Assembly: GCA_910589105.1 (NCBI GenBank) | Contig: CAJUST010000011.1 | Location: 1-64,000 of the forward strand | Length of the DNA: 64,000 nt | Direction: 5' to 3' | From: an uncultured Lachnospiraceae bacterium | Lineage (GTDB): Bacteria > Bacillota > Clostridia > Lachnospirales > Lachnospiraceae | Shown: positions 8,165-55,760 of the stretch, piece after piece | Position numbering within the stretch: position 1 is the first letter of the stretch | Layout: each line of letters opens with the position of its first letter | The notes under the pieces: generated by a model | The model's input: only the letters and a program-made list of their open reading frames with translations | What the model was told of the DNA's origin: nothing | The model's database searches: none | Made by a program: the position numbers and the translations under genes

Positions 8165-9529
8165 ATGGAAGCGCAGACAGAGAACAAGATGGGGACGATG
8201 CCGGTTAATAAACTGTTAGTTAATATTTCTCTGCCGATGGTAATATCCATGCTGGTTCAGGCATTGTATAATATTGTGGACAGTATATTTGTCGCGCAGA
8301 TTGATGAATATGCGCTGACGGCAGTTTCTCTGGCGTTCCCACTTCAAAATTTTATGATAGCGGTCGCGGCGGGGACGGGAGTCGGGGTAAACGCGCTCCT
8401 TTCGAAACGGCTGGGCGAAAAGCGGTTTGAGGAAGTGGACAAAGCGGCAGGCAATTCCGTTATACTGGCGGGGGCAAATTATCTGCTGTTTTTGCTGATC
8501 GGCGTATGCTTTTCCGGTCTGTATTTTGAACTACAGACAGATATACCGGAAATTATAGCGTATGGAAAGACGTATCTTTTGATTTGTACGGCGGCAAGTT
8601 TTGGATTGTATGGGCAGTTTTGTTTTGAACGTCTTTTACAGGCGACGGGGCGGACGGTCTGCACGATGATTACGCAGACGACGGGCGCAGTGATTAACCT
8701 GATTTTTGACCCGATATTGATTTTTGGGCTGTTTGGCTTCCCGAAAATGGGAATTGCAGGCGCGGCGGCGGCGACTGTGTTCGGGCAGATCGTGGCGATG
8801 GTATTTGGTTTTTATTACAACCAGAAAAAAAATACGGAAATCCATCTTACGCTTTCAAAAATCCGTCCGGACAAACAGACGCTGTTGCAGATTTATGAAG
8901 TTGCGGTTCCGGCGATTTTAATGCAGTCGATTGGTTCCGTTATGACATTTTTTATGAACAAGATATTGCTTGGGTTTACTTCAACGGCGGCGGCTGTGTT
9001 CGGCGTATTCTTTAAATTGCAGAGTTTTATCTTTATGCCTGTGTTTGGGTTAAATAACGGGTTAATCCCGATTGTGGCGTATAATTACGGAGCCGGATAT
9101 AAAGACAGGATTATGAAGGTGATGAAAAGCAGCATGATAGCGGCGGTTGTGTTGATGATTGCAGGGTTTTTGACGGCGGAAGTAATGCCGAAACAGCTTT
9201 TAATGCTTTTTAATGCATCGGGCCAGATGATTGAAATCGGCGTTCCGGCGCTTCGGATTTTAAGCGCATGCTATCTCTTTGCCGGCGTTTCCATTGTGGC
9301 GAGCGGGGTGTTTCAGGGATTGGGGAAAAGCGTATACAGTCTGGTATTGTCGGTTATACGCCAGCTTGTGATTTTGCTTCCGGCGGCATATCTGCTTTCC
9401 CTGACGGGAATATTAGAGGCGGTCTGGCTTTCGTTCCCGCTCGCGGAGCTTGCGGCTTTGGCGGTCACATGCGTTTATTTGAAGAAGGTGAATAAAAATT
9501 TGGAGTCTATGATAGCGGCGAGAAAGTAG
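8165..9529 (+). CDS. MATE family efflux transporter
   Basis: The N-terminus MPVNKLLVNISLPMVISMLVQALYNIVDSIFVAQIDEYALTAVSLAFP is typical of MATE proteins. About 12 TM helices at 454 aa. Confidence 0.8.
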   Translation: MEAQTENKMGTMPVNKLLVNISLPMVISMLVQALYNIVDSIFVAQIDEYALTAVSLAFPLQNFMIAVAAGTGVGVNALLSKRLGEKRFEEVDKAAGNSVILAGANYLLFLLIGVCFSGLYFELQTDIPEIIAYGKTYLLICTAASFGLYGQFCFERLLQATGRTVCTMITQTTGAVINLIFDPILIFGLFGFPKMGIAGAAAATVFGQIVAMVFGFYYNQKKNTEIHLTLSKIRPDKQTLLQIYEVAVPAILMQSIGSVMTFFMNKILLGFTSTAAAVFGVFFKLQSFIFMPVFGLNNGLIPIVAYNYGAGYKDRIMKVMKSSMIAAVVLMIAGFLTAEVMPKQLLMLFNASGQMIEIGVPALRILSACYLFAGVSIVASGVFQGLGKSVYSLVLSVIRQLVILLPAAYLLSLTGILEAVWLSFPLAELAALAVTCVYLKKVNKNLESMIAARK

Positions 9530-14872: not shown

Positions 14873-14887
14873 GGGGAAAGCAAAGAG

Positions 14888-14926
14888 GCGGTTTTGCAGA
14901 TGGAAATCTGGCAAGGCCGCTTTTTT
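14888..14926 (+). terminator. Rho-independent terminator
   Basis: Stem gcggttttgc / gcaaggccgc (10 bp with 2 G.U pairs), 13-nt loop, then TTTTTT. Confidence 0.6.
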
Positions 14927-15026
14927 AGGAGCGTTATTCTGAAAATGCAAGTGACGTTTGCTTTACACATTTTTCAATCCCTGCTATAGTAGATCCATAA
15001 AAGCGCAAAGGAAGGCAACCGGAAAC

Positions 15027-16361
15027 ATGGAAAAAAATCAAACCTCTGGCAGTGTGTTTCAAACAATTTTACAATTCTCGATTCCCTATTTATTTTCCTA
15101 TTTTCTTCAAACCCTGTATGGAATGGCAGATTTATATATGGTAGGCAGGTATAGCGGCGTAAACCACATCACAGCGGTTTCTATCGGCAGTCAGGTGATG
15201 CATATGCTGACTGTGATGATTGTCGGACTTGCGATGGGGGCGACTGTGACAATCGCAAAAGCGGTTGGGGCGAAGAAGGAAAAGGAAGCTTCTTTAGCCA
15301 TTGGAAACACTGCCGTGTTGTTTTTAGGGCTTTCTATTGGGTTTACGGCAGCGCTGCTTTTTTTGGTAAAACCGATCACAGCCATTATGGCAACTCCGAC
15401 AGAAGCGGTTTTGGGAACGGCGTCGTATCTTACCATATGCTTCCTTGGGATTCCATTTATCACGGCGTATAATATCATCAGTTCCATATTCCGCGGCCTT
15501 GGGGATTCAAAGAGCCCGATGTATTTCGTGGCGGCTGCGTGTGCGTCAAATATTTTATTGGATTATATTTTTATCCGTTATTTTTCCCTTGGCGCAACTG
15601 GAGCGGCGCTTGGCACTGTTATATCCCAGACTCTTAGCGTTGTGTTTGCCCTTTTTGTGATTCTAAAGCATTCAGCCGGAATCAAACTGCAAAAAGCAGA
15701 TTTTAAGCCATCTCCTATAACCTTAAAACGGATCTTAAAGATAGGCGTTCCCGTAGCCTTGCAGGACACTTTTATACAAGTTGCATTTATTGTCATTACA
15801 ATTATAGCAAACCGCAGGGGGCTTGTAGATGCGGCGGCAGTCGGAATTGTGGAAAAAATCATAGGCGTAGTGTTTTTGGTTCCGTCCACTATGCTTTCTG
15901 CCGTTTCTGCTTTGTCAGCGCAGAACATAGGGGCAAAAAAGGAAGGGCGCGCAAGACTGACGCTTCGGTATGCCATTTTTATCACGGTCGGTTTCGGGAT
16001 TGCCATGTCTGTTTTTGTCCAGTCTGCATATGGGCAGTTGGTTGGGATTTTTACGGAAGATTCAGACGTGATTTTATCCGGCGGGCAGTATTTGCGCAGT
16101 TATATCTGGGATTGTGTATTTGCGGGCATACATTTTAGTTTCAGCGGATATTTTTATGCGTATGGGAAATCCGGCATTTCATTTCTGCATAATATCTTGT
16201 CGATTGTCTTAATCCGCATTCCGGGAGCTTATTTTGCATCGGAGTATTTTGCCGCCAGCCTTTTTCCGATGGGGCTTGCCGCGCCTGCGGGGTCGTTGTT
16301 GTCTGTGGCAGTCTGCGCAGCCGCATACCTGAAAATCAGAAACAGTGAGGAAAAAACTTGA
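15027..16361 (+). CDS. MATE family efflux transporter (second copy)
   Basis: MEKNQTSGSVFQTILQFSIPYLFSYFLQTLYGMADLYMVGRY is a MATE N-terminus. The start at 15027 has the RBS aaaggaagg. The ORF track begins at 14958. Confidence 0.75.
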   Translation: MEKNQTSGSVFQTILQFSIPYLFSYFLQTLYGMADLYMVGRYSGVNHITAVSIGSQVMHMLTVMIVGLAMGATVTIAKAVGAKKEKEASLAIGNTAVLFLGLSIGFTAALLFLVKPITAIMATPTEAVLGTASYLTICFLGIPFITAYNIISSIFRGLGDSKSPMYFVAAACASNILLDYIFIRYFSLGATGAALGTVISQTLSVVFALFVILKHSAGIKLQKADFKPSPITLKRILKIGVPVALQDTFIQVAFIVITIIANRRGLVDAAAVGIVEKIIGVVFLVPSTMLSAVSALSAQNIGAKKEGRARLTLRYAIFITVGFGIAMSVFVQSAYGQLVGIFTEDSDVILSGGQYLRSYIWDCVFAGIHFSFSGYFYAYGKSGISFLHNILSIVLIRIPGAYFASEYFAASLFPMGLAAPAGSLLSVAVCAAAYLKIRNSEEKT

Positions 16362-33665: not shown

Positions 33666-33701
33666 AAATAAATGGTAGGGCATTTTTGGATGCTTTTCTA
33701 T

Positions 33702-33783
33702 GGGCAGATTCCCGAGTGGCCAAAGGGGACAGACTGTAAATCTGCTGCAAATTGCTTCGGTGGTTCGAATCCACCTCTGCCCA
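33702..33783 (+). tRNA. tRNA-Tyr (anticodon GTA), class II with long variable arm
   Basis: Acceptor stem GGGCAGA/TCTGCCC. Anticodon loop CTGTAAA. T-arm GGTTCGAATCC. No CCA is encoded. Confidence 0.8.
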
Positions 33784-33815
33784 TTTGAGATTTTTATTGT
33801 ATCATTGTTTGATTT

Positions 33816-33899
33816 GCCCGCGTGGCGGAACTGGCAGACGCGCAGGACTTAAAATCCTGTTGTAGCGATACAGTACCGGTTCGATTCCGGTCGCGGGCA
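33816..33899 (+). tRNA. tRNA-Leu (anticodon TAA), class II
   Basis: Acceptor stem GCCCGCG/CGCGGGC. Anticodon loop CTTAAAA. Long variable arm. T-arm GGTTCGATTCC. Confidence 0.8.
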
Positions 33900-33911
33900 T
33901 TTTATATTTAG

Positions 33912-33945
33912 AAAGCGGCGTTTTTACGCCGCTTTTTTTGTTTTA
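33912..33945 (+). terminator. Rho-independent terminator after the tRNA pair
   Basis: Stem gcggcgt / acgccgc, loop tttt, then TTTTTTTGTTTT. Confidence 0.65.
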
Positions 33946-34043: not shown

Positions 34044-37000
34044 ATGAAAAGAATGGTGGCAATGCTGCTTGCCGGATGTCTGGCATTTCAGACATGGATA
34101 GGCAATGCAAAACCGGTGTTTGGGGCGCAGACTGCATCTGGGTCAGTGGATTTTGGCGAAGCGCAGGCTGCATCTGAGTCAGTGGATTCAGGCAAAGCGC
34201 AGAGCGTTCTGGAAGTAGGGGTGCGTTCTTCCGCTCAATTCCCATTTCAGGGTGACGTAACCGTACAAATCGGACGTGGCAGCGAAGTAGTGGAATCAAA
34301 GGATTTAAAATTTGAGGGTTCTAAGGCTTCCTTTGCAGCGGCAAGGTTTGAAGTGTCAGAAGGGGATTACACAGTTACTGTGAAGTCAGTCCAATTTGCG
34401 GACTATACGCAGGATGTGAAAGCGCAAAATGGCTGGAAAACCAAGATTTTAATTTCTCCATCAAGAATTGAGACGGGCAATGAAGCGGCTCCGGGCTGGA
34501 TTCGGGTCGGCGACGTCAATCAAGATGGAGTAATTGACCAAACGGACATTGACGGCATGATGTCGAAAATCCGTGAAGGCTCTATGGAAGCTGCCTTTGA
34601 TCTCAATCAAGATGGGAAAGTGGATATGGCAGATTTGCAGTATATTGTGCAAAGCATAGATGAACATAGGGAGTCCACAGTGGAGAAGCTTGGCATAGTC
34701 CAAACGATCCAACAGGCTGAGGGCGCGACTATGGAAGGAAACGTCAACGACTTTTTAAATGGAACAGGCGCGCTGAAATTAAAGCCTGAAAATGCAAATG
34801 CGCAGATTTCAGCGGAAAATCCTGTTGGGATCAACTTTACATTAGTGGAAGATACAAAAAAAGCGGTAGAGATTCAAGGAATTGTCGTTCATGCTCCGGT
34901 AACAGATGAACAGGGCGTCATTTCCAATGAAATAACGGAAGGGGAAGTGATTTATACAGACGCGGAAGGAAAAGAAACGTCGGTTCCGTTTTCTGCCGCG
35001 GCAAAGCCAAAGCAAAAGAAGAACAGGGCGCTATTTGCTGCAAATGCGTCAAACCGCGCGGCGTCTATTTCGGCAGACGTCGAGGCTGACGGTTCGCTGG
35101 TGTTAGATTTTGGAGGGCAGATTGCAGTAAAGCGGGTAACGATAAAAATTACCGGCACCAAAAAGACAGAGCCTTTGGTGAATATTGCAAAGGTTGATTT
35201 TGTCAACGATATGGAAAATAGGATACCGGCGCCGCAGATGGACATTCCGACGCTTGGAGTTCCACAATCCGTAGATAAAGGATTGATTGTATCTTGGAAC
35301 CCGCAGAAAAATGTGACGGGGTATGAGGTATATATTTCAGGTCCTGTGAAAAACCAAGAAGAACACGAAACACAGATTGTGCGCGTGTCAAATATTACGC
35401 ATACAATATCATCTATCAATGACAAACCGCTTTTAAACTTTGAAAAATATAAAATAAAAGCGCGTTCTGTCAATGGAGACTGGAGCAGTCCATGGTCAAA
35501 TGAAGTAATCGGAGAGCCGAAGCCGACGAAACTTCCGGCGGCGCCTGATAATGTATCTGCGACAGGCGGGTACCGGACGATAGAAGTGTCATGGAAAGAC
35601 ATGGACGACGCAAACGGATACATGGTTTATTATAAAAAGACAAAAGATGCGGATACAGAGTACCGTCCGGTGATCGAAGGATTTACACAGGTAAAAGAAG
35701 GGACCGGAAAAATAAACGCAACGCATTATGTCATTGCAGGCTTAGAGGACGAAGTGGAATATTCCGTCTATGTCGTAGGCTGGAATGACCTTGGCTGGGG
35801 CAGCCCGTCACTGTCAGCATCCGCGCTTACGAAGTTAAATGTCCCGCCACAGCTTCCGAATTATAAACTGTTGAATACTTCAAATGGAGAAGGGGCAGTC
35901 AGCGCCCATATCACAGCAGCGTCATATGGCGGGCATGGCGGCGCAAAGATGGTAGGCAGCGCGTTAGATACAGCGGAAAAAAGCGCGCTTGGCTTAGTGG
36001 ATAATAACTTTGGATCTTATTGGGAAAAAACAGACTGGGACGATGGCGTGGCTTATCCGGCAGACAATAAGGGATTTACAGTGACGCTGGATCAAGATTA
36101 CAAGATGAATTTTATCACATTTGCATCCGCGGACGAAAAAGCAGCGCTTCAATATGCGCGGATTGGGTATTGGAATACAGCGTCTACAGGAAAACAGAAC
36201 GTGGGCGCGCGTCTGTATAGAAAACTTGACTCAAGGAACAATCCATACTATATTATTAAGCTTGATCAGGCAATCACTGCAAATAAAGTAAATATTTGTC
36301 TGGGACGTGACAGTGTTAGGGCATCTATGATGGTAGGTGAAATCCATTTCCATTATTATGATTCGCTGGAAGATGACATTATGGGCTTATATACAGACGA
36401 AATGCACGCTACACTGCGGGCAGACGTAACGGAAAGCGTCATTCAGGCATTAGAAGCCCGTTTAGAGCTTGTAGACGAGGCAAGCGGTGAAAAACATCCG
36501 CTTTACAATGAACTGACTTTAGAATTAAAGACAGCAAGAGAGATTTTAAATTCAAATCTGGCTTGCGCTTATGAAGTGGAAAACCAGATTACGGGAAGCA
36601 AAGATGGGCATCTTGGATTTGGCGGTTTAAATTCATGGCAGCCGGTTGGGAAAACAGTATATGCCGGTGAAAGTCTGCTTGTTTATGTCGGGCATAATAC
36701 AAAGAGAACCGGAGATAAAGCAAGCCTGCAACTTGTGTTTACGCAACAGCACGCAGAAGCGGCAACGCTTTCAAAAGCAGTCAGCTTAAAAGTGGGAAGA
36801 AATGAAATTACAGTTCCCCAGATTGTCAGCAAAGAATTTGAACGCGGCGGACAGTTATATGTAGCATATACTGGAAACAATGCAAACGATAAGTATGCAG
36901 TCCGTATAAGCGGCGGAAGCGATATTCCGGTCTTAAGCGTGTATGGAAAAACACAAGAACAACGCATGGCGGCGATTTCCGCTTATGTAAAAGAGCTTGA

Positions 37001-39275
37001 GCAATATGTCGGAACGATTGAAGCGGGACATGCGGCAAAACATACAGGGACAAAAAATGTAGATTATCCGTATGACCAGCAAAACTGTATTTTAAATACA
37101 ACAGATATTATGATGAGGGAAATGATGTATTCCGTACCTGCAACTCAGGTTTGGGCAGGCATCAAAAACGCAGAAGATAAAGCGGTAAAACTTGACCTTG
37201 CCTTAAAAGCAATGGAAAAAACAATGACGCTGTTTTACCAGCATAAAGGATTAAGTGATAACGCGGGAACCGTAAGAGGAAATAACGCATGGCCGGCGCA
37301 GCACTTGAATATCCGTTATATGAGAATGTTTGCCGGAGCGTTTATGTATGCGTCAGGCAACCACATTGGCGTAGAATGGGGTTCCACATTATTAGCAAGC
37401 GCGCCAAACGACTGGTCAGGATTTGGCTGGGGCGTAGCGCATGAAATTGGGCATGACATCAATCAGGGCGCATATGCGGTTGCGGAAATCACAAACAATT
37501 ACTTTGCGCAGCTATTGACAAAAGTTCCCGGAAAGACAAGATTCACATACAAAAATGTCTACGACAAAGTAACGTCAAATACAATCGGACGCTCTCCGAA
37601 TGTAGCGACGCAACTTGCATTGTACTGGCAGCTCCATATTGCATATGACAATAATAAGGACGACAGACATATTTACGACAACTATGAAGATCAGTTCAAT
37701 AACCTGTTCTTTGCAAGAGTGGACACTTATTCAAGGAATCCAAAAATGGCTCCGCAGGAAGGATTAACGTTAGACGGAGGCTCAGAACAGAACATTATGC
37801 GTCTTGCATGCGCGGCGGCAAATAAAAATATTCTTCCTTTCTTTGTGCGCTGGGGTATGCAGCCAGATGAGAAAACAACTGCATATGCGGCAAAATATGG
37901 AGAGGCGGAAACGAAAGCGCTCTATTATGTCAATGACGATGCAAGAGATTACCGCGTGGATCATCCAAATGAGGAAGGGACAATAAAAGATCAGGATGCC
38001 GTTACTACAGCTACAGTAAATGCAGCCGGAAATCAGGCGGAAATCACGATTGCGACAGATCGCAGCGCAGAGCTTATGCTTGGCTATGAAATCAGCCGCA
38101 GTATGATTTCAAACGGTAAAAAATCCACTCAGGTAATTGGGTTTGCGCCGATTGACACAGCGGACTCTACCGTTTTTGTAGACTCCATTTCATCAATTAA
38201 CAATCGGGTAATGGAATATGAAGTCCGCGCAGTGGATAAATACTTGAATTATTCCAATGTAAAAACGGCTGGTTCAGTAAAGATTCAGACAGACGGCGTA
38301 TTAAATAAATCTGAATGGACAGTGGAGACAACAATGACTTCGGCTGACGATACCGTAATCGAGCCGGACGGAGAAGATCCGGACAGCGGATATGAAGCGG
38401 AAGATCCGGCAGGCGTAGAAGCGAAAAAGGTCAACAGCATTACAAGGATTTTAGACAATGACAGGACAGCGGCTGGAACTTATAACGGAGTAAGCGGCGG
38501 CGCCGCGTCAATTACCATAGATATGCGTAAGACAGAAGAAGTGACGGCATTAAAATATCAGGGTTCTGCAGTTGCTTCGGCGGCAGTTGAAGTCAGCCCA
38601 GATGGTGAGAATTGGACAAAAGTGAAAGAGAACGTTTCTCTTGCCGCAAATGCAGAGCAGACGGTATGGTTTGATTCCGTCAATGAAGAAGACCGCAAGA
38701 ACTGGATTGGCACTTACGATGCGAAATATGTAAGGCTGACGCTGTCGCAGGCAGGCAGTATTTCCATTCAGGAAATCGAAATCTGCGGCCCGACAGGGGA
38801 TAATTTGGAATTTATGGCAACGGAAGAAGGCCAGCCGGCAATCGGCGTATTGAAGGAAGACTTTACATATGGCGAAGAAGCGGCGGACGTAATTCCGGCA
38901 GGCTCATTAATCTTTACCGGGACATATAAAGGAAATCCGGCATATAATATAGTTGCGCTCTATGATGCAAATGGCAATGTAATCGGGGAAAAAGATGGAA
39001 ATGTCTCTGCGGAACAAATAATTTTGGCGGACGTTCCGGAACAAGGAAATCTGGGTGAAACCTCAGACGGAACTTGGGTATATTATGTAAGGCCGGATCA
39101 GTGGAATTTAGAAGCGATAAGGAACACAGGCTTCGTGCGTGGAGAATTATACCGTGTAGACAATGCCCTGACGTTAGAGGGCGAGCGTATTGTCAGTGAT
39201 ACAAAACTGCTTGAGATTCCTCAGGAATTGCCGGATATTACGCTTCAAGGAGGTAAGTATGAAAAATTGGATTAA
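34044..39275 (+). CDS. Dockerin-containing M60-like/enhancin-like zinc metallopeptidase (HEIGH) with FN3 and F5/8 type C (discoidin) domains, 1743 aa, secreted
   Basis: Signal peptide MKRMVAMLLAGCLAFQTWIGNA. Two dockerin Ca-binding repeats are present (GDVNQDGVIDQTDIDGM and DLNQDGKVDMADLQYIV, about 34507-34660). FN3-like segments follow. The zincin motif GWGVAHEIGHD lies at 37439-37456 within a region of about 400 aa. Two discoidin-like domains are present (DNNFGSYWEK..., and the C-terminal ASITIDMRKTEEVTALKYQG...VRLTLSQAGSISIQEIEICG). Confidence 0.55.
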   Translation: MKRMVAMLLAGCLAFQTWIGNAKPVFGAQTASGSVDFGEAQAASESVDSGKAQSVLEVGVRSSAQFPFQGDVTVQIGRGSEVVESKDLKFEGSKASFAAARFEVSEGDYTVTVKSVQFADYTQDVKAQNGWKTKILISPSRIETGNEAAPGWIRVGDVNQDGVIDQTDIDGMMSKIREGSMEAAFDLNQDGKVDMADLQYIVQSIDEHRESTVEKLGIVQTIQQAEGATMEGNVNDFLNGTGALKLKPENANAQISAENPVGINFTLVEDTKKAVEIQGIVVHAPVTDEQGVISNEITEGEVIYTDAEGKETSVPFSAAAKPKQKKNRALFAANASNRAASISADVEADGSLVLDFGGQIAVKRVTIKITGTKKTEPLVNIAKVDFVNDMENRIPAPQMDIPTLGVPQSVDKGLIVSWNPQKNVTGYEVYISGPVKNQEEHETQIVRVSNITHTISSINDKPLLNFEKYKIKARSVNGDWSSPWSNEVIGEPKPTKLPAAPDNVSATGGYRTIEVSWKDMDDANGYMVYYKKTKDADTEYRPVIEGFTQVKEGTGKINATHYVIAGLEDEVEYSVYVVGWNDLGWGSPSLSASALTKLNVPPQLPNYKLLNTSNGEGAVSAHITAASYGGHGGAKMVGSALDTAEKSALGLVDNNFGSYWEKTDWDDGVAYPADNKGFTVTLDQDYKMNFITFASADEKAALQYARIGYWNTASTGKQNVGARLYRKLDSRNNPYYIIKLDQAITANKVNICLGRDSVRASMMVGEIHFHYYDSLEDDIMGLYTDEMHATLRADVTESVIQALEARLELVDEASGEKHPLYNELTLELKTAREILNSNLACAYEVENQITGSKDGHLGFGGLNSWQPVGKTVYAGESLLVYVGHNTKRTGDKASLQLVFTQQHAEAATLSKAVSLKVGRNEITVPQIVSKEFERGGQLYVAYTGNNANDKYAVRISGGSDIPVLSVYGKTQEQRMAAISAYVKELEQYVGTIEAGHAAKHTGTKNVDYPYDQQNCILNTTDIMMREMMYSVPATQVWAGIKNAEDKAVKLDLALKAMEKTMTLFYQHKGLSDNAGTVRGNNAWPAQHLNIRYMRMFAGAFMYASGNHIGVEWGSTLLASAPNDWSGFGWGVAHEIGHDINQGAYAVAEITNNYFAQLLTKVPGKTRFTYKNVYDKVTSNTIGRSPNVATQLALYWQLHIAYDNNKDDRHIYDNYEDQFNNLFFARVDTYSRNPKMAPQEGLTLDGGSEQNIMRLACAAANKNILPFFVRWGMQPDEKTTAYAAKYGEAETKALYYVNDDARDYRVDHPNEEGTIKDQDAVTTATVNAAGNQAEITIATDRSAELMLGYEISRSMISNGKKSTQVIGFAPIDTADSTVFVDSISSINNRVMEYEVRAVDKYLNYSNVKTAGSVKIQTDGVLNKSEWTVETTMTSADDTVIEPDGEDPDSGYEAEDPAGVEAKKVNSITRILDNDRTAAGTYNGVSGGAASITIDMRKTEEVTALKYQGSAVASAAVEVSPDGENWTKVKENVSLAANAEQTVWFDSVNEEDRKNWIGTYDAKYVRLTLSQAGSISIQEIEICGPTGDNLEFMATEEGQPAIGVLKEDFTYGEEAADVIPAGSLIFTGTYKGNPAYNIVALYDANGNVIGEKDGNVSAEQIILADVPEQGNLGETSDGTWVYYVRPDQWNLEAIRNTGFVRGELYRVDNALTLEGERIVSDTKLLEIPQELPDITLQGGKYEKLD

Positions 39276-40425
39276 ATGTATGTTATTGACAATGTTTCTT
39301 ATTGTTGCGGCGCCTTTAGACGCCGCAGCGGCAAGCGACAGCCAAATGCTTACAGTAGATAAAAATGACGTTATCCTGACCGTAAACCTTCCAGAAGGAA
39401 AAACAGATAAGATTACGTCACTCCGTATAAAACTCCATGTTTCGGTTCTTTCAGGAACGATGGAACAGCCATCATTTCAGTTTGAGGAATCATTGAACAG
39501 CCGGATTAAAGATTCTCAGATCCGGCAGTTGGAGGACGGAAGCTACCTTGTGGATTTAATTCTTTCAGGAAAGGAAGATCAGGATATTTTTTCTGGAAAT
39601 GAATCTGTGAAAACAGGAAAATTATCCCTACACCCTTCCAGTCAGGAATATCAGGCAAAAGTGGAGTTTGCATCCGGAACCGAAGGCAGTAATGAGCCGG
39701 TAATTAGATATGTAGATGCAAGCGGTTTGAATGAAATGTCACTTCTTTTGGACAGCCCGCAAAGCGTTTTCGTAAAAAATGAGACGGCAGAGCCGCCAGC
39801 GGAACAGCCGCCTGCCGGTGATCCGTCGGATCAGACGCCTGTGGAGGAGGCTTTTGGCAAAAAGCCGAAACTGAAAGCGTCACCTGTGAAAGGTTCAAAC
39901 AGCATTGTGTTTGAATGGAAGAAAGTCGCGGATGCAGATGGCTATGAAATTTACCAATACAATGCAAAATCAAAAACTTATAAGAGACTGAAAAAAATCA
40001 ACAATCCTTCCGTTACGGCATATTCCAAAAAATTTAAGTATGCCACGTCTTATACGTTTAAGTTTCGGGCGTATAAGAACAAAGAGGACGGCTCTAAGTC
40101 ATATGGGAAATACAGCTCGGCTGTAAAGGTCACAACGTCGCCAAAAAAGGTAACGAAAGTTACTTTAAAAAATACAGAGGCGAAGAAGTCGACCATTTCA
40201 TGGAAAAAAGTATCGAATGCAAAAGGATACCAGATTTACCGGAGTAAGAAAAAAGGCGGAACCTATAAACTGCTTAAAACAATCAAAAAGGGAAAAACGA
40301 CAAAGTGGGCAGTAAACAAGCCGAAAAAAGGCGGGGTATACTATTACAAAGTCAGGGCTTATGTAAAGAATGCGAAGGGAAAACGCATTGACGGTAAGTT
40401 CAGTTCCGTAATATCTTTAAAATAG
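39259..40425 (+). CDS. Secreted protein translationally coupled to the M60 protease gene: N-terminal ~200-aa beta-rich domain (cohesin-like?) plus two Lys-rich FN3-like domains
   Basis: The ATG at 39259 lies 8 nt after aggaggt and overlaps the upstream stop (39273-39275). Signal peptide MKNWIKCMLLTMFLIVAAPLDAAAA. C-terminal repeats VFEWKKVADADGYEIYQY... and ISWKKVSNAKGYQIYRSKK... are FN3-like. Confidence 0.5.
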   Translation: MKNWIKCMLLTMFLIVAAPLDAAAASDSQMLTVDKNDVILTVNLPEGKTDKITSLRIKLHVSVLSGTMEQPSFQFEESLNSRIKDSQIRQLEDGSYLVDLILSGKEDQDIFSGNESVKTGKLSLHPSSQEYQAKVEFASGTEGSNEPVIRYVDASGLNEMSLLLDSPQSVFVKNETAEPPAEQPPAGDPSDQTPVEEAFGKKPKLKASPVKGSNSIVFEWKKVADADGYEIYQYNAKSKTYKRLKKINNPSVTAYSKKFKYATSYTFKFRAYKNKEDGSKSYGKYSSAVKVTTSPKKVTKVTLKNTEAKKSTISWKKVSNAKGYQIYRSKKKGGTYKLLKTIKKGKTTKWAVNKPKKGGVYYYKVRAYVKNAKGKRIDGKFSSVISLK

Positions 40426-47843: not shown

Positions 47844-50800
47844 TTACTTTTGCATCTGCCCGATGAGCAGATCTGCAAGGCGGTCTGCTTCGTCTGCGTC
47901 AAGATTTGTCACTGCTTCGGCAAGTGAGCGGATTGTCTGGCTTAGTTCTTCCGGGCATTCATACTCCCGCAATTCGCCCATCAGCTCATCTGCGCGGTCA
48001 ATGTCCATTTCCAGCATACTCTGCCGTATGAGTTCTGTTAGAGCCTGTAATACGGAATAGTCTTCCACTTCTTTTTTTGCCGTAGCGCCTATGCCAAATA
48101 CTCCATGTAATTTTTGCCCATAACTGCGCCATTCTTCCAAAAAAGCGTCTGTCATAGACTGGATTACTTCTATTTTACCATCTCTTGCCGCAGATTCCAA
48201 TAGTTTCGCAACACCGGAAAGCGGCATGATTCCAATTGTTGCCGCTAAACTTTTCATTGCATGGACTAAAATGCGGTATTGGTTTCGCTGTTCCGGTTCC
48301 CTGATCCGCTGGTATGCCTTTGCCAAATTGTCTGCCGCAAAATCAATTTGTCCATAAAACTCTTTGACTGTAAAAGCAAGCAGTTCTGGGTCTGGCAAAT
48401 GCATCCATGCGTATTGCCAGTCTAAACCGTCGATGTCTGGGAGCGTTTCCAAAAAATCGGAAGGATTGTCTTGCTGTCGGGGTTGTAAAAATGCCGCATC
48501 CGGAGAGCTTTTCGCTTCTTGAACCAATTCTTCCGGCAGCATCCGCTTTATCATTACCTCTAGTTTTTCCGGAGCAATCGGTTTCGACAAAAAATCGTCA
48601 AATCCTTCTGCCAGATATTTTTCTTTTGCGCCTGAAACCGCATTGGCGGTCAATACAACAATAGGCGTATTTTTGCAAGGGGACTCCTTGCGTTCTTTCA
48701 AATGGTGGAGCGTTTCAATGCCGTCCATCTCCGGCATCATATGGTCAAGGAAAATCAAATCGTAGTGATTTTGGAACGCAAGCTCTAAACAGGCCGCGCC
48801 GCCATCGGCGTCCGTCACTTGGATTTGCGTTTCTTTTAACAGACTCCGCAGGACTTTGCGGTTGACGGCATTGTCATCGACTACTAGTATTTTCGCATCT
48901 GGAGCGCAGAATTTTGTATTATAATTGTAATTTTCTGCAATTTGGTGGACTCTGGATTCAAAATCCCCAATCGGCGTATCGTCAACGATTTTCTGTTCTA
49001 GCTCAAAATAGAATTTCGAGCCTTTGCCATATTCGCTTTCCACCTGCAGCCGGCTGCCAAGCAGTTCTAAAAGCTGGATTGTAATATTTATGCCAAGTCC
49101 GGTGCCTTCTATATTGCGGTTTCGGTCTTCTTCAATCCGTTCAAATTCCGCGGAAAGCTTGGGCAGATCCTCTTTTTTAATCCCAATTCCGGTGTCCTCT
49201 ACTTCAAAAGTAAGCGCCGCTGTGTCCTTCTTCCTTTGGTATGAAATCCGAAGCCATACAGAGCCTTCATGCGTATATTTAACGGCATTAGTCAGGATAT
49301 TCGTCAGAACCTGCCGGATACGCACGTCATCGCCAAATAGACGGGCAGGGATTTCGTGGCTGGCTTCCACTTCCACTTTGATGTTTTTCGCTTTTGCCCG
49401 CTGGATTGTCATATTTGCAAGGTCATGAATTAAGCTGCTTACGTCATATTCGACCGGAACAATTTCCATTTTGCCGGATTCTATTTTGGAAAAATCTAAT
49501 ATATCGTTTATCAGAGAAAGAAGCGTCTGACCCGCCATATAAATGTCCATCGCGTATTCTTTAATCTGCGGTTCATTGGATTCCCGCAGAATCATTTCGT
49601 CCATGCCAAGAACGGCATTGATTGGCGTGCGGATTTCATGGGACATATGCGCCAGAAATTTTCCCTTCGCTTCATTTGCCGCTAAAGCTTCATGTCTCGC
49701 CGCATCCGCATCTTGTTTGGCAAGCGCTAACAGTGTGTTCTGATATTCCGCCGCCTTTACTTTTTCCTCTAAAAGAAGGGCTGTTTCTTCTGCCTTTGCG
49801 CGGTATTCTTTTGAAATCTGCAAGGTGTGCATAAGCGCCATCATAATGCAGAACACGACCATGCTGTACTGGCCGGCCGTATTGCCGCGGACCTGATCAA
49901 GCATCTGGTTTAATATTACATTGGCAATTCCGCCCGCCAAAAGCGCAAGCATAGACAAAATACAGAGTAAAGCCTGATACGTTTTGTTTTTGTAATCGTA
50001 CTGAATTAAGCTTACGATGGCGGTTATGCAGACAATGCCTAAAACGGCGGCGGAAATATTCATCATATTTTCCAGTCGCTGTATCCCCAAAAGCTGAAGC
50101 AGTATTTGTATGACGGTATGGAGGACTACAAACCAAAGAAGCGTGAAAAAACGGCGCGGAAACACCGTATGCAAGTTCCGTTCAAAATAGAGTGAAAGAA
50201 ACAGAGGGATTAACAGGGTTAAATACTCCTGCATTTCATACGCTTCCTGTATATTATAAAATATGTTTAACGTGTCTGTGCCAATAAAACAATAAATTCC
50301 GGCGGAAAGACAGGCAAGCCCTAAAAATAGTTCTCCGCGCGCCGGCTGTTTGGTATACAGCCGGATCAGGGCAAGCACAAATAGAATAATCGACATAATG
50401 ACAATTAAAATACAGCATCCAATATCGGCAATGCTGCTTCCGACAACTCCAATGACAACCATATCGCGTGATTCCACTTTGACGTTGTCTAGTGAAACTG
50501 CCATATTTGGCGAAAGAGGCGTAAGCGTAATTAAAATTTCCCCATCAATCAATATATTTGGAAGCTCTACGAAGTTTTCATTGTGTTCTGGCGTCTTTTT
50601 GGGCGTATAATTTTCCTGTTGGCTATTTTGAAAGATAACTTCTCCATTTACTATAATGGATATGTCAGCATTAGTATAAGAAAAGCTTAATGTCTGCCTT
50701 GCATAGTCGAAAGGAACCGTATTTTGTAAGACAATGATGTCTCCGGCGCCTGCCATGCCGGTAAACGGCAAATCCACTTTCTGGCAGTTCTCGTCTGCCA

Positions 50801-51032
50801 ATGTGGTTTTTGCCTGTTCTAAAATTTGGGCGAAACGCGTTGGAATGGCCGGGTTAATTCCGTCACAGTCTGGCAATGCCATCTTCCAGTTTTTATCAAA
50901 GGAAACTTCCAACTGATCCGGAAGTATAGTTGCGCTATCCTCGCTTTGAAATTGAAATAACGCAAGCACCATAAAGGCTAGCGTCAAAAAAACAGAGATT
51001 CCCGCTATTTTTCTTAAATGTAAATGTTTCAT
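47844..51032 (-). CDS. Hybrid sensor histidine kinase: N-terminal extracellular domain + 7TM (7TMR-DISM-like) + HisKA + HATPase + REC + HPt
   Basis: Signal/TM at the N-terminus and about 7 TM helices (res ~200-400). H-box AHMSHEIRTPINAVLGM. HATPase G-boxes. REC with KILVVDDNAVNRKVL...DLIFLDHMMPEMDG. The C-terminal HPt has LVHAMKSLAATIG. The gene is 21 nt upstream of the response regulator gene. Confidence 0.8.
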   Translation of the reverse strand: MKHLHLRKIAGISVFLTLAFMVLALFQFQSEDSATILPDQLEVSFDKNWKMALPDCDGINPAIPTRFAQILEQAKTTLADENCQKVDLPFTGMAGAGDIIVLQNTVPFDYARQTLSFSYTNADISIIVNGEVIFQNSQQENYTPKKTPEHNENFVELPNILIDGEILITLTPLSPNMAVSLDNVKVESRDMVVIGVVGSSIADIGCCILIVIMSIILFVLALIRLYTKQPARGELFLGLACLSAGIYCFIGTDTLNIFYNIQEAYEMQEYLTLLIPLFLSLYFERNLHTVFPRRFFTLLWFVVLHTVIQILLQLLGIQRLENMMNISAAVLGIVCITAIVSLIQYDYKNKTYQALLCILSMLALLAGGIANVILNQMLDQVRGNTAGQYSMVVFCIMMALMHTLQISKEYRAKAEETALLLEEKVKAAEYQNTLLALAKQDADAARHEALAANEAKGKFLAHMSHEIRTPINAVLGMDEMILRESNEPQIKEYAMDIYMAGQTLLSLINDILDFSKIESGKMEIVPVEYDVSSLIHDLANMTIQRAKAKNIKVEVEASHEIPARLFGDDVRIRQVLTNILTNAVKYTHEGSVWLRISYQRKKDTAALTFEVEDTGIGIKKEDLPKLSAEFERIEEDRNRNIEGTGLGINITIQLLELLGSRLQVESEYGKGSKFYFELEQKIVDDTPIGDFESRVHQIAENYNYNTKFCAPDAKILVVDDNAVNRKVLRSLLKETQIQVTDADGGAACLELAFQNHYDLIFLDHMMPEMDGIETLHHLKERKESPCKNTPIVVLTANAVSGAKEKYLAEGFDDFLSKPIAPEKLEVMIKRMLPEELVQEAKSSPDAAFLQPRQQDNPSDFLETLPDIDGLDWQYAWMHLPDPELLAFTVKEFYGQIDFAADNLAKAYQRIREPEQRNQYRILVHAMKSLAATIGIMPLSGVAKLLESAARDGKIEVIQSMTDAFLEEWRSYGQKLHGVFGIGATAKKEVEDYSVLQALTELIRQSMLEMDIDRADELMGELREYECPEELSQTIRSLAEAVTNLDADEADRLADLLIGQMQK

Positions 51033-51310: not shown

Positions 51311-53935
51311 ATGAAAGAAAAAAGTAAGGATATGGGTAAAAAGAAAAAAATCTTAAGGGAAGGCTCGGTTGTGGCGATTTTTATGGCGATACTGATCCTT
51401 GCAGTGGCTTTTAGGAATTATTTTTCATTTCTTGAAAAACAGTTATTTGAGGAACGTAGAAGCCATATCGTGGAATTTACGGATAAAGCGGCTGAAATTG
51501 TAGACAGTGTCATTGAATATTCATGGCAGCAGGTGTACGCATGTGAACACGTTATGAAAACACGGAAAATTAATTCCGAGGAGAAACTGCTTGAAGCGCT
51601 TGTGTCGACGGCGGATTTTATAGATTCGCAAAATTCCCTTGTGCTGGCGATAGATCAAAGCGCAAATTACTATGCATCGGATGCTGCAAAAGGAAGATTT
51701 TCGCAAACGGAATTTCTGACGGAGGAATCAGGCGATTCCCAGCAGATTGTGACGGAAATTCCGCATAAAAATGGAAATACATATTTTGTGTGCATGGAAC
51801 GCTTAAAAGAGCCTATTATGTTTACGGCCGGCAAAAAGATTACACATTTGGCAGTTGCAGTGGATATTGACGTAATGAGGGATAGAAGCGCCGTGAAGGG
51901 GTATGGGGATTTGTGCTATACCTATTTGGTGAATGATGATGGCAGAAGGCTTTACAAATATACTTATGCCAATAACTTTATTGAAGGATACAATATTTTA
52001 AATGCTTTAGAGAATGTTGACATTCGAAACGGCGGGACGTATCAGGGATTTGTGCGGGAGTTAGAAAAAGGGGAAAGCCCGGCTCTGGAATTTACGTTTA
52101 TTGATCCAGATGGAAAGAAGCGGAACTGGTTTGTGGCGGGTTCTGCCATTACGTCAAAAAACTGGCATATCCTTCTGTTTGTGCCGACGGAAGTGCTTGG
52201 GGCGAATTCGAATCTGCTTTTAAAGAATACAATCAGATTTTTTGGGATTGTGTCGGTTGTTTTTTTGGCGCTGGCGGCTGTTATTATCGTAATTACTACG
52301 TTGTCAAGGGCGGATAAACGTCTTGTCAGGCAAAAAGACGAGGCAAATCAGCTTCTAAAAACTGCGGTAGAGGAAGCGAACAGCGCAAATCAGGCGAAAA
52401 GCGATTTTCTCTCTCATATGAGCCATGATATCCGGACGCCGATTAACGGCATTATGGGAATGACGGATATTGCGTTAAAAAATATAGGCAATGAAAAGAA
52501 AGTGTTAGACTGCCTAAAGAAAATCAGCGGTTCTTCCCAGCATCTGCTTGGGCTGATCAATGACGTTTTAGATATGAGCCGGATTGAATCAGGCAAGACG
52601 AAATTAAACCATGAGAAATTTGATCTGCGCGTTTGCATTGACAACTGTATTTCGATCATTGGCGGTCAGATGGCGACAAGAGATATGGAAATGGTTCGTA
52701 TGATTGAACCGTTTGAGCATCCGTTTTTAATTGGCGATGAATTGCATTTGCGTCAGATATTTATTAATATTCTGGGAAATTCCGTAAAATTTACGCCAGA
52801 TGGCGGCAAGCTGTATTTTCGGGCAAGGGAAAAGAAGGCGGAAAACGGCAGGGCGCTGTTCCGGTTTGAACTGGCGGATACGGGAATTGGCATGAAAGAA
52901 GACTTTTTGCCGCATATTTTTGATGCGTTTTCACAGGAAGACGGCGGGACGCGCACGACGTATAAAGGCACAGGTCTTGGAATGGCAATTACGAAAAAGT
53001 TTGTGGATTTGATGGACGGACAGATAGAAGTAAAAAGCAAGCTGAATATGGGTACGGAATTTCAGATTGAAGTCTGGATTGATATTGATTCAGAAGCAAA
53101 AGAAGATGAATTGCAGGCGGATTTCCATATTGATTTTACAGGAATGAAGGTTCTTTTGGTAGAGGATATTGAACTGAATATGGAGATTGCCCAGTGTATC
53201 TTAGAAGATGAAGGGGCAGTGGTCACTCCGGTTATGAATGGGCGGGAAGCAGTGGATGCGTTTGAGAAAAACCCGGAAGGGACATTTGACGTTATTATTA
53301 TGGATATTATGATGCCGGTGATGGACGGCATAACCGCGGCGAAAACTATTCGTGGATTAGACCGTCCGGATGCAAAGACGATTCCGATTTTGGCGATGAC
53401 GGCGAATGCGTATGAAGAAGACGTCAGAAAAACGCATGAAGCGGGAATGAATGCGCATTTGTCGAAACCGATTGACGTAGATATGCTGTTTAAGACATTG
53501 GCGGACGTTTACTTCCCGGAAAAGAAAACGCCAAGTTCAAAGGCTCTTTCTGGCATGAAAGTTCTTTTGGCAGACGATGTGGATTTGAATTTGGAAATTG
53601 CGAAAGCGATGTTAGAAGAATGGGACGTAGAAGTGACGACGGCGGAAAATGGGCGGGAAGCAGTGGATTTATTTGAAAAAAGCCCAAAAGGCGGATTTGA
53701 TGCGATACTGATGGATGTGCATATGCCAGTGATGGATGGCATTGCCGCAGTAAAAACGATCCGTTCTATGGAACGCGCGGATGCAGTTACAATACCGATT
53801 TTTGCGATGACGGCGGATATTTATGAGGAGGATATTAAGGCAGTTCATGAAGCCGGAATGAATGGGCATTTAGAGAAACCATTAATTGCGGAAGAAATCA
53901 TACGAAATCTTTCCGCAGTCTATAAACCTTCTTAA
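51311..53935 (+). CDS. Hybrid sensor histidine kinase: TM + periplasmic Cache-like sensor + TM + HisKA + HATPase + two REC domains
   Basis: H-box SHMSHDIRTPINGIMGM. HATPase. Two receivers (KVLLVEDIELNMEIA...DVIIMDIMMPVMDG and KVLLADDVDLNLEIA...DAILMDVHMPVMDG). Confidence 0.8.
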   Translation: MKEKSKDMGKKKKILREGSVVAIFMAILILAVAFRNYFSFLEKQLFEERRSHIVEFTDKAAEIVDSVIEYSWQQVYACEHVMKTRKINSEEKLLEALVSTADFIDSQNSLVLAIDQSANYYASDAAKGRFSQTEFLTEESGDSQQIVTEIPHKNGNTYFVCMERLKEPIMFTAGKKITHLAVAVDIDVMRDRSAVKGYGDLCYTYLVNDDGRRLYKYTYANNFIEGYNILNALENVDIRNGGTYQGFVRELEKGESPALEFTFIDPDGKKRNWFVAGSAITSKNWHILLFVPTEVLGANSNLLLKNTIRFFGIVSVVFLALAAVIIVITTLSRADKRLVRQKDEANQLLKTAVEEANSANQAKSDFLSHMSHDIRTPINGIMGMTDIALKNIGNEKKVLDCLKKISGSSQHLLGLINDVLDMSRIESGKTKLNHEKFDLRVCIDNCISIIGGQMATRDMEMVRMIEPFEHPFLIGDELHLRQIFINILGNSVKFTPDGGKLYFRAREKKAENGRALFRFELADTGIGMKEDFLPHIFDAFSQEDGGTRTTYKGTGLGMAITKKFVDLMDGQIEVKSKLNMGTEFQIEVWIDIDSEAKEDELQADFHIDFTGMKVLLVEDIELNMEIAQCILEDEGAVVTPVMNGREAVDAFEKNPEGTFDVIIMDIMMPVMDGITAAKTIRGLDRPDAKTIPILAMTANAYEEDVRKTHEAGMNAHLSKPIDVDMLFKTLADVYFPEKKTPSSKALSGMKVLLADDVDLNLEIAKAMLEEWDVEVTTAENGREAVDLFEKSPKGGFDAILMDVHMPVMDGIAAVKTIRSMERADAVTIPIFAMTADIYEEDIKAVHEAGMNGHLEKPLIAEEIIRNLSAVYKPS

Positions 53936-53963
53936 AAGCTATAGTTTAAAAGGAGGAGTTAAA

Positions 53964-55760
53964 GTGAAGAAAAAAATTTTAACGCTTTTAACGGGAGTTT
54001 TATGTTTATCGACTTGTTTTGCCGGATGTGGATCTGATCAGGCAAAACAAATTCAGAAAAGTTCTGATAAAACAGAAGATGACGGAGCAAAACGGCAAAC
54101 GCATGAGGCGGTGACGATCAGCAGTTTTAACAAGCTGGTAAAAAAAGAATTTCTCGATGCGTTCCATCAGGTGTACCCAGAGGTGGAATTAGACGTGCAA
54201 AGCTATTCGGGCATGAATGGAAGCAGTTATTCAAGGCTTACTTTAGAAAATGGGGACATTCCGGATATTTATGTAACAACGCAGAATTTTAGTAAAGAAT
54301 CGCAGGAAAAGTATCTTGTGGATTTGTCTAATTATGACTTTATTAACCAGTATTCCAATACGATTTTAGATTCACTTGACGTAAATGGAAGCATTTATTT
54401 GATTCCTTCCGGATACCAGTTGATGGGAATTTATTATAATAAGACGATTCTCGATGAAAATGGCTGGAAGGTTCCAAACAGCTTTCAGGAACTTTCTGCG
54501 CTTGATAAAGAAATTCAGGCGGCGGGCTATCGGACGATGGGGAATGCTATGTCATTGGACGGCTATCCGTTTAACTATTTTTTCAATTTAGGAAATACAC
54601 AATATTTCGGTACGCCTGAAGGAACGGCATGGAAAGCCGGTTTTCCGGACGGAAAAGAGAAAGCGGCAGGAAATGAAGGTTTGAAAATGTGTGTGGAGTA
54701 TTTTAATAAATGGGTGGAGGAAGGCTTTATAAGCGGAGAACATATGCCGCTTGAGCAGTTTATGGAAGGCGGCTGTGTGTTTTATCTCTGTTTGGGTATC
54801 AGTGAATATGAGCATACGGCAGAAAACGGAAAGACGTATCAGTTTGGGACAATGCCATGGTTAAGCGACGATGGAAGCAATAATATGGTGACGAGAAATG
54901 TGTCGGGCTATATGGGGATTCATAAGACGTTGGAAGAAGATGGCAATGAACAGAAATTAGAAGATGCGTTAAAAGTGTTTCAGTTTATATCCACGGCAGA
55001 GGGGCAGCGGGCTTTAATGTCGGGCAGCAGCCAGTATATGTCTTCCTTAAATGAAGCAAGTCTGGAAGAAGACAGCCCGTATCAGGAATTACAGACTTTC
55101 GTAAATGAAGGCCGTACAGTCCCGATGTTATATGTAGGCTGGGAGGATCTGATTATACCAATTGCGCAAGATATTAAATTGCTGATAGAAGGAAAAATAG
55201 ATGCTGGAGAGCTGTCAGGCTATTTTGATGAGACGAACGAAGCGTTGCGGAAGGGATCTTCAGAAGATGTGTACGCGATACTTCAGGAAGAACTGACATT
55301 AGAAGAAACGGCGCGTTTGATTGCTATTGCAGAGGGAATGGCGGTGGATGCGGATTGCGCGATGATTTCCCTGAATCAATACCACGGAGACAATAAATCG
55401 AACAATCAGGGGTTAGGCTGGAAGTTCTATCAGGGAGAACTGACATTAGATTTGATCAATATTGTCTGTCCAAGATCGGATACGATTTCGGTTTTAGAGA
55501 TGACAGGGGCGGAAATTAAAAAAATGCAGCAGGAGGGGTTTGACTTAGACGGAAACGGGAATCCTTACGAATATCTGTTATTTACAAAAGACGGGGAATT
55601 GTCGGATCACACTGTTTATAAACTTGCAGTTTCCACAGGCGAGCTCACGGAGGAAATGCAGAAAAAGGCGAAAGAGACAAAACATTCTCCTAAAGAAGCG
55701 ATTGGGCAATATCTGCGGAAGTTGAAAACTGTCAATTCAGAGAAAATTTGTTGGGATTGA
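53964..55760 (+). CDS. Extracellular solute-binding lipoprotein (ABC-type sugar-binding, family 1) with no adjacent permease genes
   Basis: GTG start at 53964 is 8 nt after aggagg. Lipoprotein signal VKKKILTLLTGVLCLSTCFAGCGS. SBP_bac_1-like length, about 600 aa. It directly follows the hybrid kinase gene. Confidence 0.65.
   Translation: MKKKILTLLTGVLCLSTCFAGCGSDQAKQIQKSSDKTEDDGAKRQTHEAVTISSFNKLVKKEFLDAFHQVYPEVELDVQSYSGMNGSSYSRLTLENGDIPDIYVTTQNFSKESQEKYLVDLSNYDFINQYSNTILDSLDVNGSIYLIPSGYQLMGIYYNKTILDENGWKVPNSFQELSALDKEIQAAGYRTMGNAMSLDGYPFNYFFNLGNTQYFGTPEGTAWKAGFPDGKEKAAGNEGLKMCVEYFNKWVEEGFISGEHMPLEQFMEGGCVFYLCLGISEYEHTAENGKTYQFGTMPWLSDDGSNNMVTRNVSGYMGIHKTLEEDGNEQKLEDALKVFQFISTAEGQRALMSGSSQYMSSLNEASLEEDSPYQELQTFVNEGRTVPMLYVGWEDLIIPIAQDIKLLIEGKIDAGELSGYFDETNEALRKGSSEDVYAILQEELTLEETARLIAIAEGMAVDADCAMISLNQYHGDNKSNNQGLGWKFYQGELTLDLINIVCPRSDTISVLEMTGAEIKKMQQEGFDLDGNGNPYEYLLFTKDGELSDHTVYKLAVSTGELTEEMQKKAKETKHSPKEAIGQYLRKLKTVNSEKICWD

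Follow-up and report, generated by a model that had tools for sequence, protein, structure and literature searches.

A two-gene locus of gut Lachnospiraceae that may tether an M60-like O-glycopeptidase to the cell surface through a cryptic cohesin

How a commensal gut bacterium could keep a secreted mucin-directed peptidase at its own surface is the question raised by a locus of an uncultured Lachnospiraceae bacterium, in which the gene for a large M60-like peptidase bearing a dockerin is overlapped at its end by the gene for a smaller secreted partner. The locus lies in the first 64,000 nucleotides of contig CAJUST010000011.1 (assembly GCA_910589105.1, forward strand), which are referred to here as the window. 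M60-like O-glycopeptidases are key to breaching or foraging on the mucus barrier, and their positioning by commensal Firmicutes is poorly understood. The locus suggests a self-contained solution in which the enzyme and its own cohesin anchor are encoded in one operon. The favoured interpretation, which is considered probable, is that the two genes form a 1:1 cohesin-dockerin cassette tethering the M60 O-glycopeptidase to the cell surface, and not part of a multi-enzyme complex.

The open reading frame (ORF) of the peptidase is exactly that given in a preliminary description of this DNA, including the ATG start and the 1743-residue product (Table 1). Pfam-A matches were counted only above the curated gathering scores, which yields four families for this protein, among them all three profiles that the preliminary description had named for checking (Peptidase_M60, Dockerin_1 and F5_F8_type_C). 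Peptidase_M60 (PF13402) matches residues 1021-1271 at 39.6 bits (cut-off 25.8) and spans profile positions 31-275 of 275. The best PDB matches by phmmer are the Clostridium perfringens O-glycopeptidases ZmpB (5kdj, E 9e-26; 7jfs; 5kdn), ZmpC (6xsz) and ZmpA (6xsx), with the BcM60 enzyme also among the matches, and a profile built from 47 orthologues improves the match to E 1e-39 (7jfs). The alignment with 5kdj covers two stretches, the accessory domain at 768-986 and the catalytic domain at 1094-1354, and pairs GWGVAHEIGHD, a motif present as noted earlier, with GWGVAHELGHN. H1133, E1134, H1137 and E1148 are invariant across the 47 aligned orthologues, and the gluzincin signature of HExxH with a downstream Glu is present as H1133-E-I-G-H1137 plus E1148, the third zinc ligand, aligned with HELGH...E of ZmpB. 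The HEIGH region is therefore assigned to M60, as first proposed, on the strength of the Pfam profile, the homology to the solved ZmpB, ZmpC and ZmpA structures and the invariant residues; M6 and M64 identities are ruled out, M60 alone being matched. As an enzyme, the protein is a fresh member of the already known M60-like family, and its substrate would probably be a mucin-type O-glycoprotein.

The dockerin lies near the N-terminus. Dockerin_1 (PF00404) matches residues 156-202 at 29.3 bits (cut-off 22.9), and the two calcium-loop motifs quoted earlier, DVNQDGVIDQTD and DLNQDGKVDMAD, are found starting at residues 157 and 186. They fall in two tandem segments of about 22 residues, in each of which a helix comes after a calcium loop of 12 residues (D-x-[DN]-x-D-G-x5-D), as is the build of a dockerin. 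An AlphaFold2 (AF2) model of residues 55-400, with a mean predicted local distance difference test score (pLDDT) of 90.7 and a predicted template modelling score (pTM) of 0.85, resolves three modules, namely a beta-sandwich at about 56-145, the dockerin and a jelly-roll at about 214-390. Both dockerin helices start right after a calcium loop with pLDDT > 90, and the high pTM suggests that the three modules pack rigidly against one another. The Ig-like beta-sandwich stands immediately N-terminal to the dockerin and is packed against it in the model, as in a type II-like X-module-dockerin (XDoc) dyad. The preliminary description was right to call a genuine dockerin, while its designation as type I is not established, as the module follows a beta-sandwich and resembles an XDoc dyad. 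Against solved dockerins (NagH 2jnk/2ozn, CelS 1daq and others) the 77-residue dockerin segment gives marginal matches (E ~2e-3) with EF-hand proteins intermingled. Family hidden Markov models (HMMs) were built from our own alignments and searched against all ORFs of the related loci described below, and the dockerin segment was found in 75 of the 75 M60 ORFs whose N-terminus is on the contig. Helix conservation is asymmetric, with a mean top-residue frequency of 0.68 in the second helix (conserved residues A196, L198, Q199, V202, Q203 and S204) versus 0.48 in the first. In XDoc modules, such asymmetry agrees with a single binding mode via helix 3.

Comparison of five unrelated genomic contexts shows that the sole conserved surrounding of the M60 gene is a same-strand gene directly downstream, encoding 367-515 residues; in the window its ATG lies 17 nt ahead of the M60 stop. 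Aligned with one another, the five products are 38-50% identical and share a signal peptide, a conserved acidic N-domain of about 160 residues, a variable Pro/Thr/Glu-rich linker and two to three FN3 repeats. The N-domain has no Pfam match even at E <= 10 and no NCBIfam match, and the 25 families that 45 partner orthologues match most frequently do not include Cohesin (PF00963). Its structure model is a nine-stranded flattened beta-sandwich (jelly-roll) of the cohesin type, and the product of the adjacent gene is accordingly modelled as a cohesin-fold protein, a candidate for the cohesin genes whose search the preliminary description proposed. A word-indexed search with the N-domain alone gave 2 fragments, and relatives were recovered with a full-length query and exhaustive HMMER; the exhaustive HMMER scan of 1.84 billion representatives places the cohesin-domain family in only 54 clusters, nearly all with the same one-cohesin architecture.

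The pairing extends far beyond the window. With the M60 alignment as query, a scan covering a single genome of each GTDB species returned 80 loci; of 84 non-redundant loci, four ending at a contig edge were left out and 80 were scored for the partner. A partner gene lies downstream in 80 of 80, starting -28 to +418 nt from the M60 stop, and its N-domain is homologous in 79 (jackhmmer E <= 1e-15), the partner at locus L088 being recognised only by eye. Each partner carries a single cohesin. The M60-cohesin pairing is therefore conserved in at least 80 gut bacterial species, and it is from this genomic association that we infer physical binding between dockerin and cohesin. The loci derive from mouse (MGBC), rabbit, chicken and human metagenome-assembled genomes (MAGs) and from isolates including Eubacterium plexicaudatum ASF492, Hominisplanchenecus murintestinalis DSM 111139, Lachnospiraceae strains 46-15, 29-84, X68 and MGB1, and a Faecalimonas sp. 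The identical M60 protein occurs on 25 contigs, its 90% cluster includes an NCBI 'Eubacterium sp.' MAG protein labelled hypothetical, and Lachnospiraceae or 'Eubacterium' genomes contribute more than 200 full-length relatives at 46-70% identity, a few of which are named 'M60 family metallopeptidase' by NCBI. In the genome encoding orthologue P0014 (L002/L003, 22117-25220), the gene for a 2170-residue GH101 endo-alpha-N-acetylgalactosaminidase with LRR_5 repeats begins about 7 kb downstream of the pair, which is consistent with the mucin O-glycan theme.

The second half of the partner is its putative anchoring part. In the window, the two C-terminal FN3 repeats carry 50 Lys and Arg against 8 Asp and Glu, and basic FN3 repeats (tail isoelectric point, pI, 9.1-10.8) form the putative anchor in 71 partners. 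Peptidoglycan hydrolases of the M15 (M15_4), NlpC/P60 and CHAP types (proteins P0240-P0251) carry fused repeats that share 37-46% identity with the partner tail; as the same repeats decorate these enzymes, the tail probably binds anionic cell-wall polymers, and the repeats may represent an undescribed wall-targeting module. Sequence comparison of the tail with the PDB yielded nothing beyond weak generic FN3 matches, so that wall binding stays at the level of this association. The nine most distant loci (a clade at 42-44% identity) instead have, as putative anchor, a hydrophobic helix at the C-terminus with a Lys/Arg-rich tail after it; the transmembrane (TM) helix was called automatically in five of the nine partners and judged by eye in the other four, and FIVAR repeats are added in one case. 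In the distant partners at L088 (14864-16915) and L075 (15190-16182), FIVAR repeats occur together with a cohesin-like N-domain and a TM helix at the C-terminus; in C. perfringens NagH, FIVAR is likewise found alongside the dockerin. No observation argues more strongly for a surface-anchor role of the partner than this exchange of anchoring devices behind the same cohesin. A sortase anchor is ruled out, LPXTG being found in neither the M60 protein nor the partner.

Taken together, these features suggest the following mechanism. The two genes form an operon, with translation of the second coupled to that of the first. Gene 1 encodes a secreted gluzincin O-glycopeptidase (HEIGH plus Glu) with three discoidin/CBM32-type modules, two FN3 spacers and a rigid N-terminal XDoc dyad, and gene 2 a secreted protein in which a flexible linker rich in Pro, Thr and Glu connects one highly divergent cohesin to an anchoring device. 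This device would in most species be one to three strongly basic FN3 repeats held on wall polymers, and in the distant clade a C-terminal TM helix whose polybasic tail lies in the cytoplasm. Through calcium-dependent binding of the dockerin to the cohesin, one peptidase molecule per anchor would then be held on the cell surface, where the CBM32 modules could bind O-glycans of the galactose/N-acetylgalactosamine type and the M60 domain could cut the mucin or glycoprotein backbone beside glycosylated Ser/Thr.

Several observations weigh against this mechanism. Compared with solved cohesins, the partner domain is only 6-12% identical in sequence, and for this domain the scores of beta-sandwich adhesin domains fall just about 3 Z units below those of cohesins. 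The calcium-loop residues are degenerate in distant orthologues of the M60 protein, no experimental precedent was found for wall binding by these basic FN3 repeats, and a lipobox-like LL[ATS]GC motif occurs in the signal peptide of 77 of 116 M60 orthologues, with Cys at position 12 in 56. In addition, a mirror-tree/partial Mantel test gives no dockerin-specific co-evolution signal and does not discriminate between modules, as all of them correlate with cohesin divergence and the dockerin (partial r 0.42) does not rise above the others. The highest partial correlation, that of the CBM32-like module 214-395 beside the dockerin (0.63), could be noise or a hint of an interface role. Beside these points stands the explanation that the dockerin-like module is a structural calcium element or binds another ligand, and that the neighbour is a co-expressed Ig-like or cohesin-like adhesin or accessory factor without docking; this is judged unlikely.

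The lipobox-like motif raises a second alternative, as the M60 enzyme might be lipid-anchored by itself through Cys12 (LAGC, 34068-34079), with the cohesin partner acting as an adaptor to the wall or another ligand instead of as the primary anchor. Counted as [LVI][ASTVI][GAS]C within the first 30 residues, the motif is far rarer in the partner proteins (1 of 97) than in the M60 orthologues. However, the hydrophobic h-region is too short, with 4-5 uncharged residues between the MKR n-region and the lipobox where the G+LPP lipoprotein pattern has at least 6, the hydrophobic stretch runs on beyond the lipobox Cys, a conserved AxA-type cleavage site (VxGA) lies near residue 28, and the Cys is absent in the L004 and L006 orthologues. 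A lipoprotein peptidase is thus improbable, and tethering through the cohesin partner is preferred.

The preliminary description had proposed attachment through the dockerin to a cohesin-based surface complex of the cellulosome or amylosome kind. A cohesin-fold neighbour supports the attachment, and its single cohesin makes it look like a dedicated anchor and not a cellulosome-like scaffold. At locus L069, a second ORF (12823-16224), truncated at the end of the contig, gives a family-dockerin HMM match (E 4e-10) and also has FN3 domains; it is about 6.5 kb away from the pair, and the partner there is enlarged (6259-8241; 660 residues, with insertions in the cohesin region). The 4656-residue protein P0291, a giant SprB/SdrD-repeat protein with a weak C-terminal Dockerin_1 match (E 0.002), matches the cohesin domain weakly in four places and is a possible multi-cohesin relative. 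That the pair belongs to a true 'mucinolysome', with more dockerin-bearing enzymes, and with scaffoldins of several cohesins, encoded in other parts of the genome, as in the multi-enzyme systems of Limousia (PMC12997984), is nevertheless very improbable, given one cohesin per partner at every scored locus, no second paired calcium-loop motif among the other ORFs of the window (generic paired-loop regular expression), no other dockerin or cohesin match in the window or, L069 excepted, in the 10-kb flanks at the other loci, the small one-cohesin family and the absence of Pfam Cohesin from the most frequent partner matches noted above.

Among the remaining modules of the M60 protein, F5_F8_type_C matches residues 1470-1571 at 34.9 bits (cut-off 28.2), which identifies an F5/8 type C/CBM32 domain, and fn3 matches two stretches within residues ~410-591 (41.4 bits, cut-off 25). 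Residues ~610-770 have no Pfam match in the window protein, and F5_F8_type_C matches the corresponding part of orthologue P0054 at 32.2 bits (same cut-off). The earlier statement that the zincin core is flanked by discoidin domains therefore holds directly for the C-terminal side and by homology for the N-terminal one. A third module of discoidin/CBM32 fold at 214-395, missed in that description, is seen in the AF2 structure, giving three discoidin-type modules altogether. The last ~150 residues are well conserved among orthologues. Alignment of the protein's own modules with hhalign gave about 1% probability even for the two established CBM32-type modules, and 610-770 and 1590-1743 are unplaced by this route.

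Table 1. Features of the M60 peptidase-cohesin locus in the window (residue numbers refer to the encoded protein)
Feature	Coordinates	Strand	Basis
Terminator-like hairpin after tRNA-Leu, 12-bp stem then T run; strong	33910..33937	+	
Gene for secreted multimodular M60-like (ZmpB-type) O-glycopeptidase, 1743 aa	34044..39275	+	ATG start, Pfam and PDB homology
Signal peptide (residues ~1-28, cleavage probably after VFGA) with lipobox-like LAGC at residues 9-12	34044..34127	+	Read from sequence
Beta-sandwich X-module, residues ~56-145, directly N-terminal to dockerin	34209..34478	+	
Dockerin, residues 150-212; calcium loops 157-168 and 186-197; helices 166-178 and 195-204	34491..34679	+	Pfam Dockerin_1, AF2, family HMM
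Cryptic CBM32/discoidin-fold module, residues 214-395, without Pfam match	34683..35228	+	
Two FN3 domains, residues ~405-600	35256..35843	+	Pfam, profile search
Probable second F5/8-type-C (discoidin) module, residues ~610-770	35871..36353	+	Homology to orthologue P0054 only
Accessory domain at the N-terminal side of the M60 core, residues 768-986; homologue of the equivalent ZmpB part	36345..37001	+	Aligned with 5kdj and 7jfs
M60 catalytic domain, residues 1021-1354, with HEIGH (37440-37454) and E1148 as third zinc ligand	37104..38105	+	Pfam, PDB homology, orthologue conservation
F5/8 type C (CBM32-type) domain, residues 1470-1571	38451..38756	+	Pfam
Conserved C-terminal domain, residues 1590-1743, fold without assignment, without LPXTG	38811..39272	+	
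Shine-Dalgarno AAGGAGG within M60 ORF, 5 nt before partner ATG	39247..39253	+	
Partner gene, 388 aa, cohesin-bearing putative surface anchor; overlaps M60 stop by 17 nt	39259..40425	+	
Cryptic cohesin-fold domain (model), partner residues 23-185, pI 4.5	39325..39813	+	
Two very basic FN3 repeats, partner residues 205-388, pI 10.3; putative cell-wall-binding tail	39871..40422	+	

Upstream of the M60 gene follow, in order, a GH13 amylase gene, tRNA-Tyr and tRNA-Leu (33701-33900) and the hairpin of Table 1, which probably ends the upstream transcription unit; sporulation and housekeeping genes lie farther upstream. Elsewhere in the window, a 544-residue protein with a Pfam MVP_shoulder (major-vault-protein shoulder) domain (24-1658, + strand; E 2.5e-21) is directly followed by a 1390-residue surface protein with Big_2, Listeria-Bacteroides repeats and CarboxypepD_reg (1673-5845, +). 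Two hybrid histidine kinases with receiver domains beside a fused solute-binding-protein gene (47844-51032, -; 51311-53935, +; 53886-55760, +) represent sugar-sensing-type regulation with no evident link to the M60 pair, and 55816-61173 (-) encodes a BspA-type surface protein of 1785 residues that has leucine-rich repeats (LRR_5, 468 bits) and, at its C-terminus, Big_2 domains.

The broader claim, for which the balance is about even, is that gut Lachnospiraceae carry an unrecognised cryptic cohesin family whose sole role is to serve as an adjacent-gene, single-client anchor for an X-dockerin mucin O-glycopeptidase, a minimal 1:1 'plug and socket' with interchangeable anchors (basic FN3 wall tail or TM helix). 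If this is true, cohesin-dockerin surface display would be far commoner in host-associated commensals than Pfam-based censuses show, whole cohesin families being missed by HMM censuses of that kind, and basic FN3 repeats would be a new class of non-covalent Gram-positive wall-binding module. The pair would also offer a compact orthogonal cohesin-XDoc couple for protein-display engineering. As it occurs in culturable model strains, E. plexicaudatum ASF492 (of the Altered Schaedler Flora) and H. murintestinalis DSM 111139, the hypothesis is directly testable.

The extension of cohesin-dockerin assemblies to host-glycoprotein degradation, suggested in the preliminary description, is supported but not new, given the survey, the C. 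perfringens complexes and the Limousia system considered here. A survey of M60-like (PF13402) proteins (Nakjang et al. 2012, PMC3267712) reported PF00404 Dockerin type 1 with M60-like domains in two proteins, alongside CBM32 and FN3, and contains no cohesin partner, gene-pair analysis, or structural or functional treatment of the dockerin. The principle of a cryptic cohesin likewise has a precedent, as a 2026 preprint shows such cases in Ruminococcus. Four features were found in no paper of the literature searched. Two of them are the cryptic cohesin family and the strict placing of its gene beside that of one X-dockerin peptidase; the others are a design of one cohesin with exchangeable anchors, and the spread in Lachnospiraceae.

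Among characterised enzymes, ZmpB, ZmpC and ZmpA of C. perfringens (5kdj, 7jfs, 6xsz, 6xsx) resemble the window protein in their accessory and catalytic domains with HExxH plus Glu, in being multimodular with CBM32 and FN3, and in being secreted by a gut Firmicute. The window protein is only about 25-30% similar to them over the core (E 1e-26), and it adds the N-terminal XDoc dyad and is always followed by the cohesin-anchor gene; no link of ZmpB with a dockerin was found in the literature searched. The cohesin(X82)-dockerin glycosidase complexes of C. perfringens (NagH-NagJ, NanJ; 2ozn, 2vo8, 2w1n) also act on mucin and host glycans, but their cohesins reside on other enzymes and form enzyme-enzyme complexes, whereas the window cohesin is on a non-catalytic anchor beside its single client, which is a peptidase. 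In the cellulosomal type II system of C. thermocellum, the XDoc of CipA is at the scaffoldin C-terminus and pairs with SdbA, OlpB or ScaC (5g5d, 3kcp) on SLH or sortase anchors, whereas here the XDoc is at the enzyme N-terminus, the anchor is a basic FN3 tail or TM helix, and one enzyme is served without a scaffoldin. A parallel in function is the Limousia 'mucinolysome' (Akresi et al., Gut Microbes 2026, PMC12997984; bioRxiv 2025), which achieves cohesin-dockerin display of mucin-degrading enzymes in a gut anaerobe, as the window pair would, and includes dockerin-bearing peptidases; their families are unnamed in the main text, and the supplementary text has no mention of M60. Limousia, a member of the Acutalibacteraceae, relies on multi-cohesin scaffoldins visible to Pfam, dozens of dockerin enzymes and a sortase anchor, whereas the window system combines a Lachnospiraceae host, a cryptic cohesin and what is probably a 1:1 cassette.

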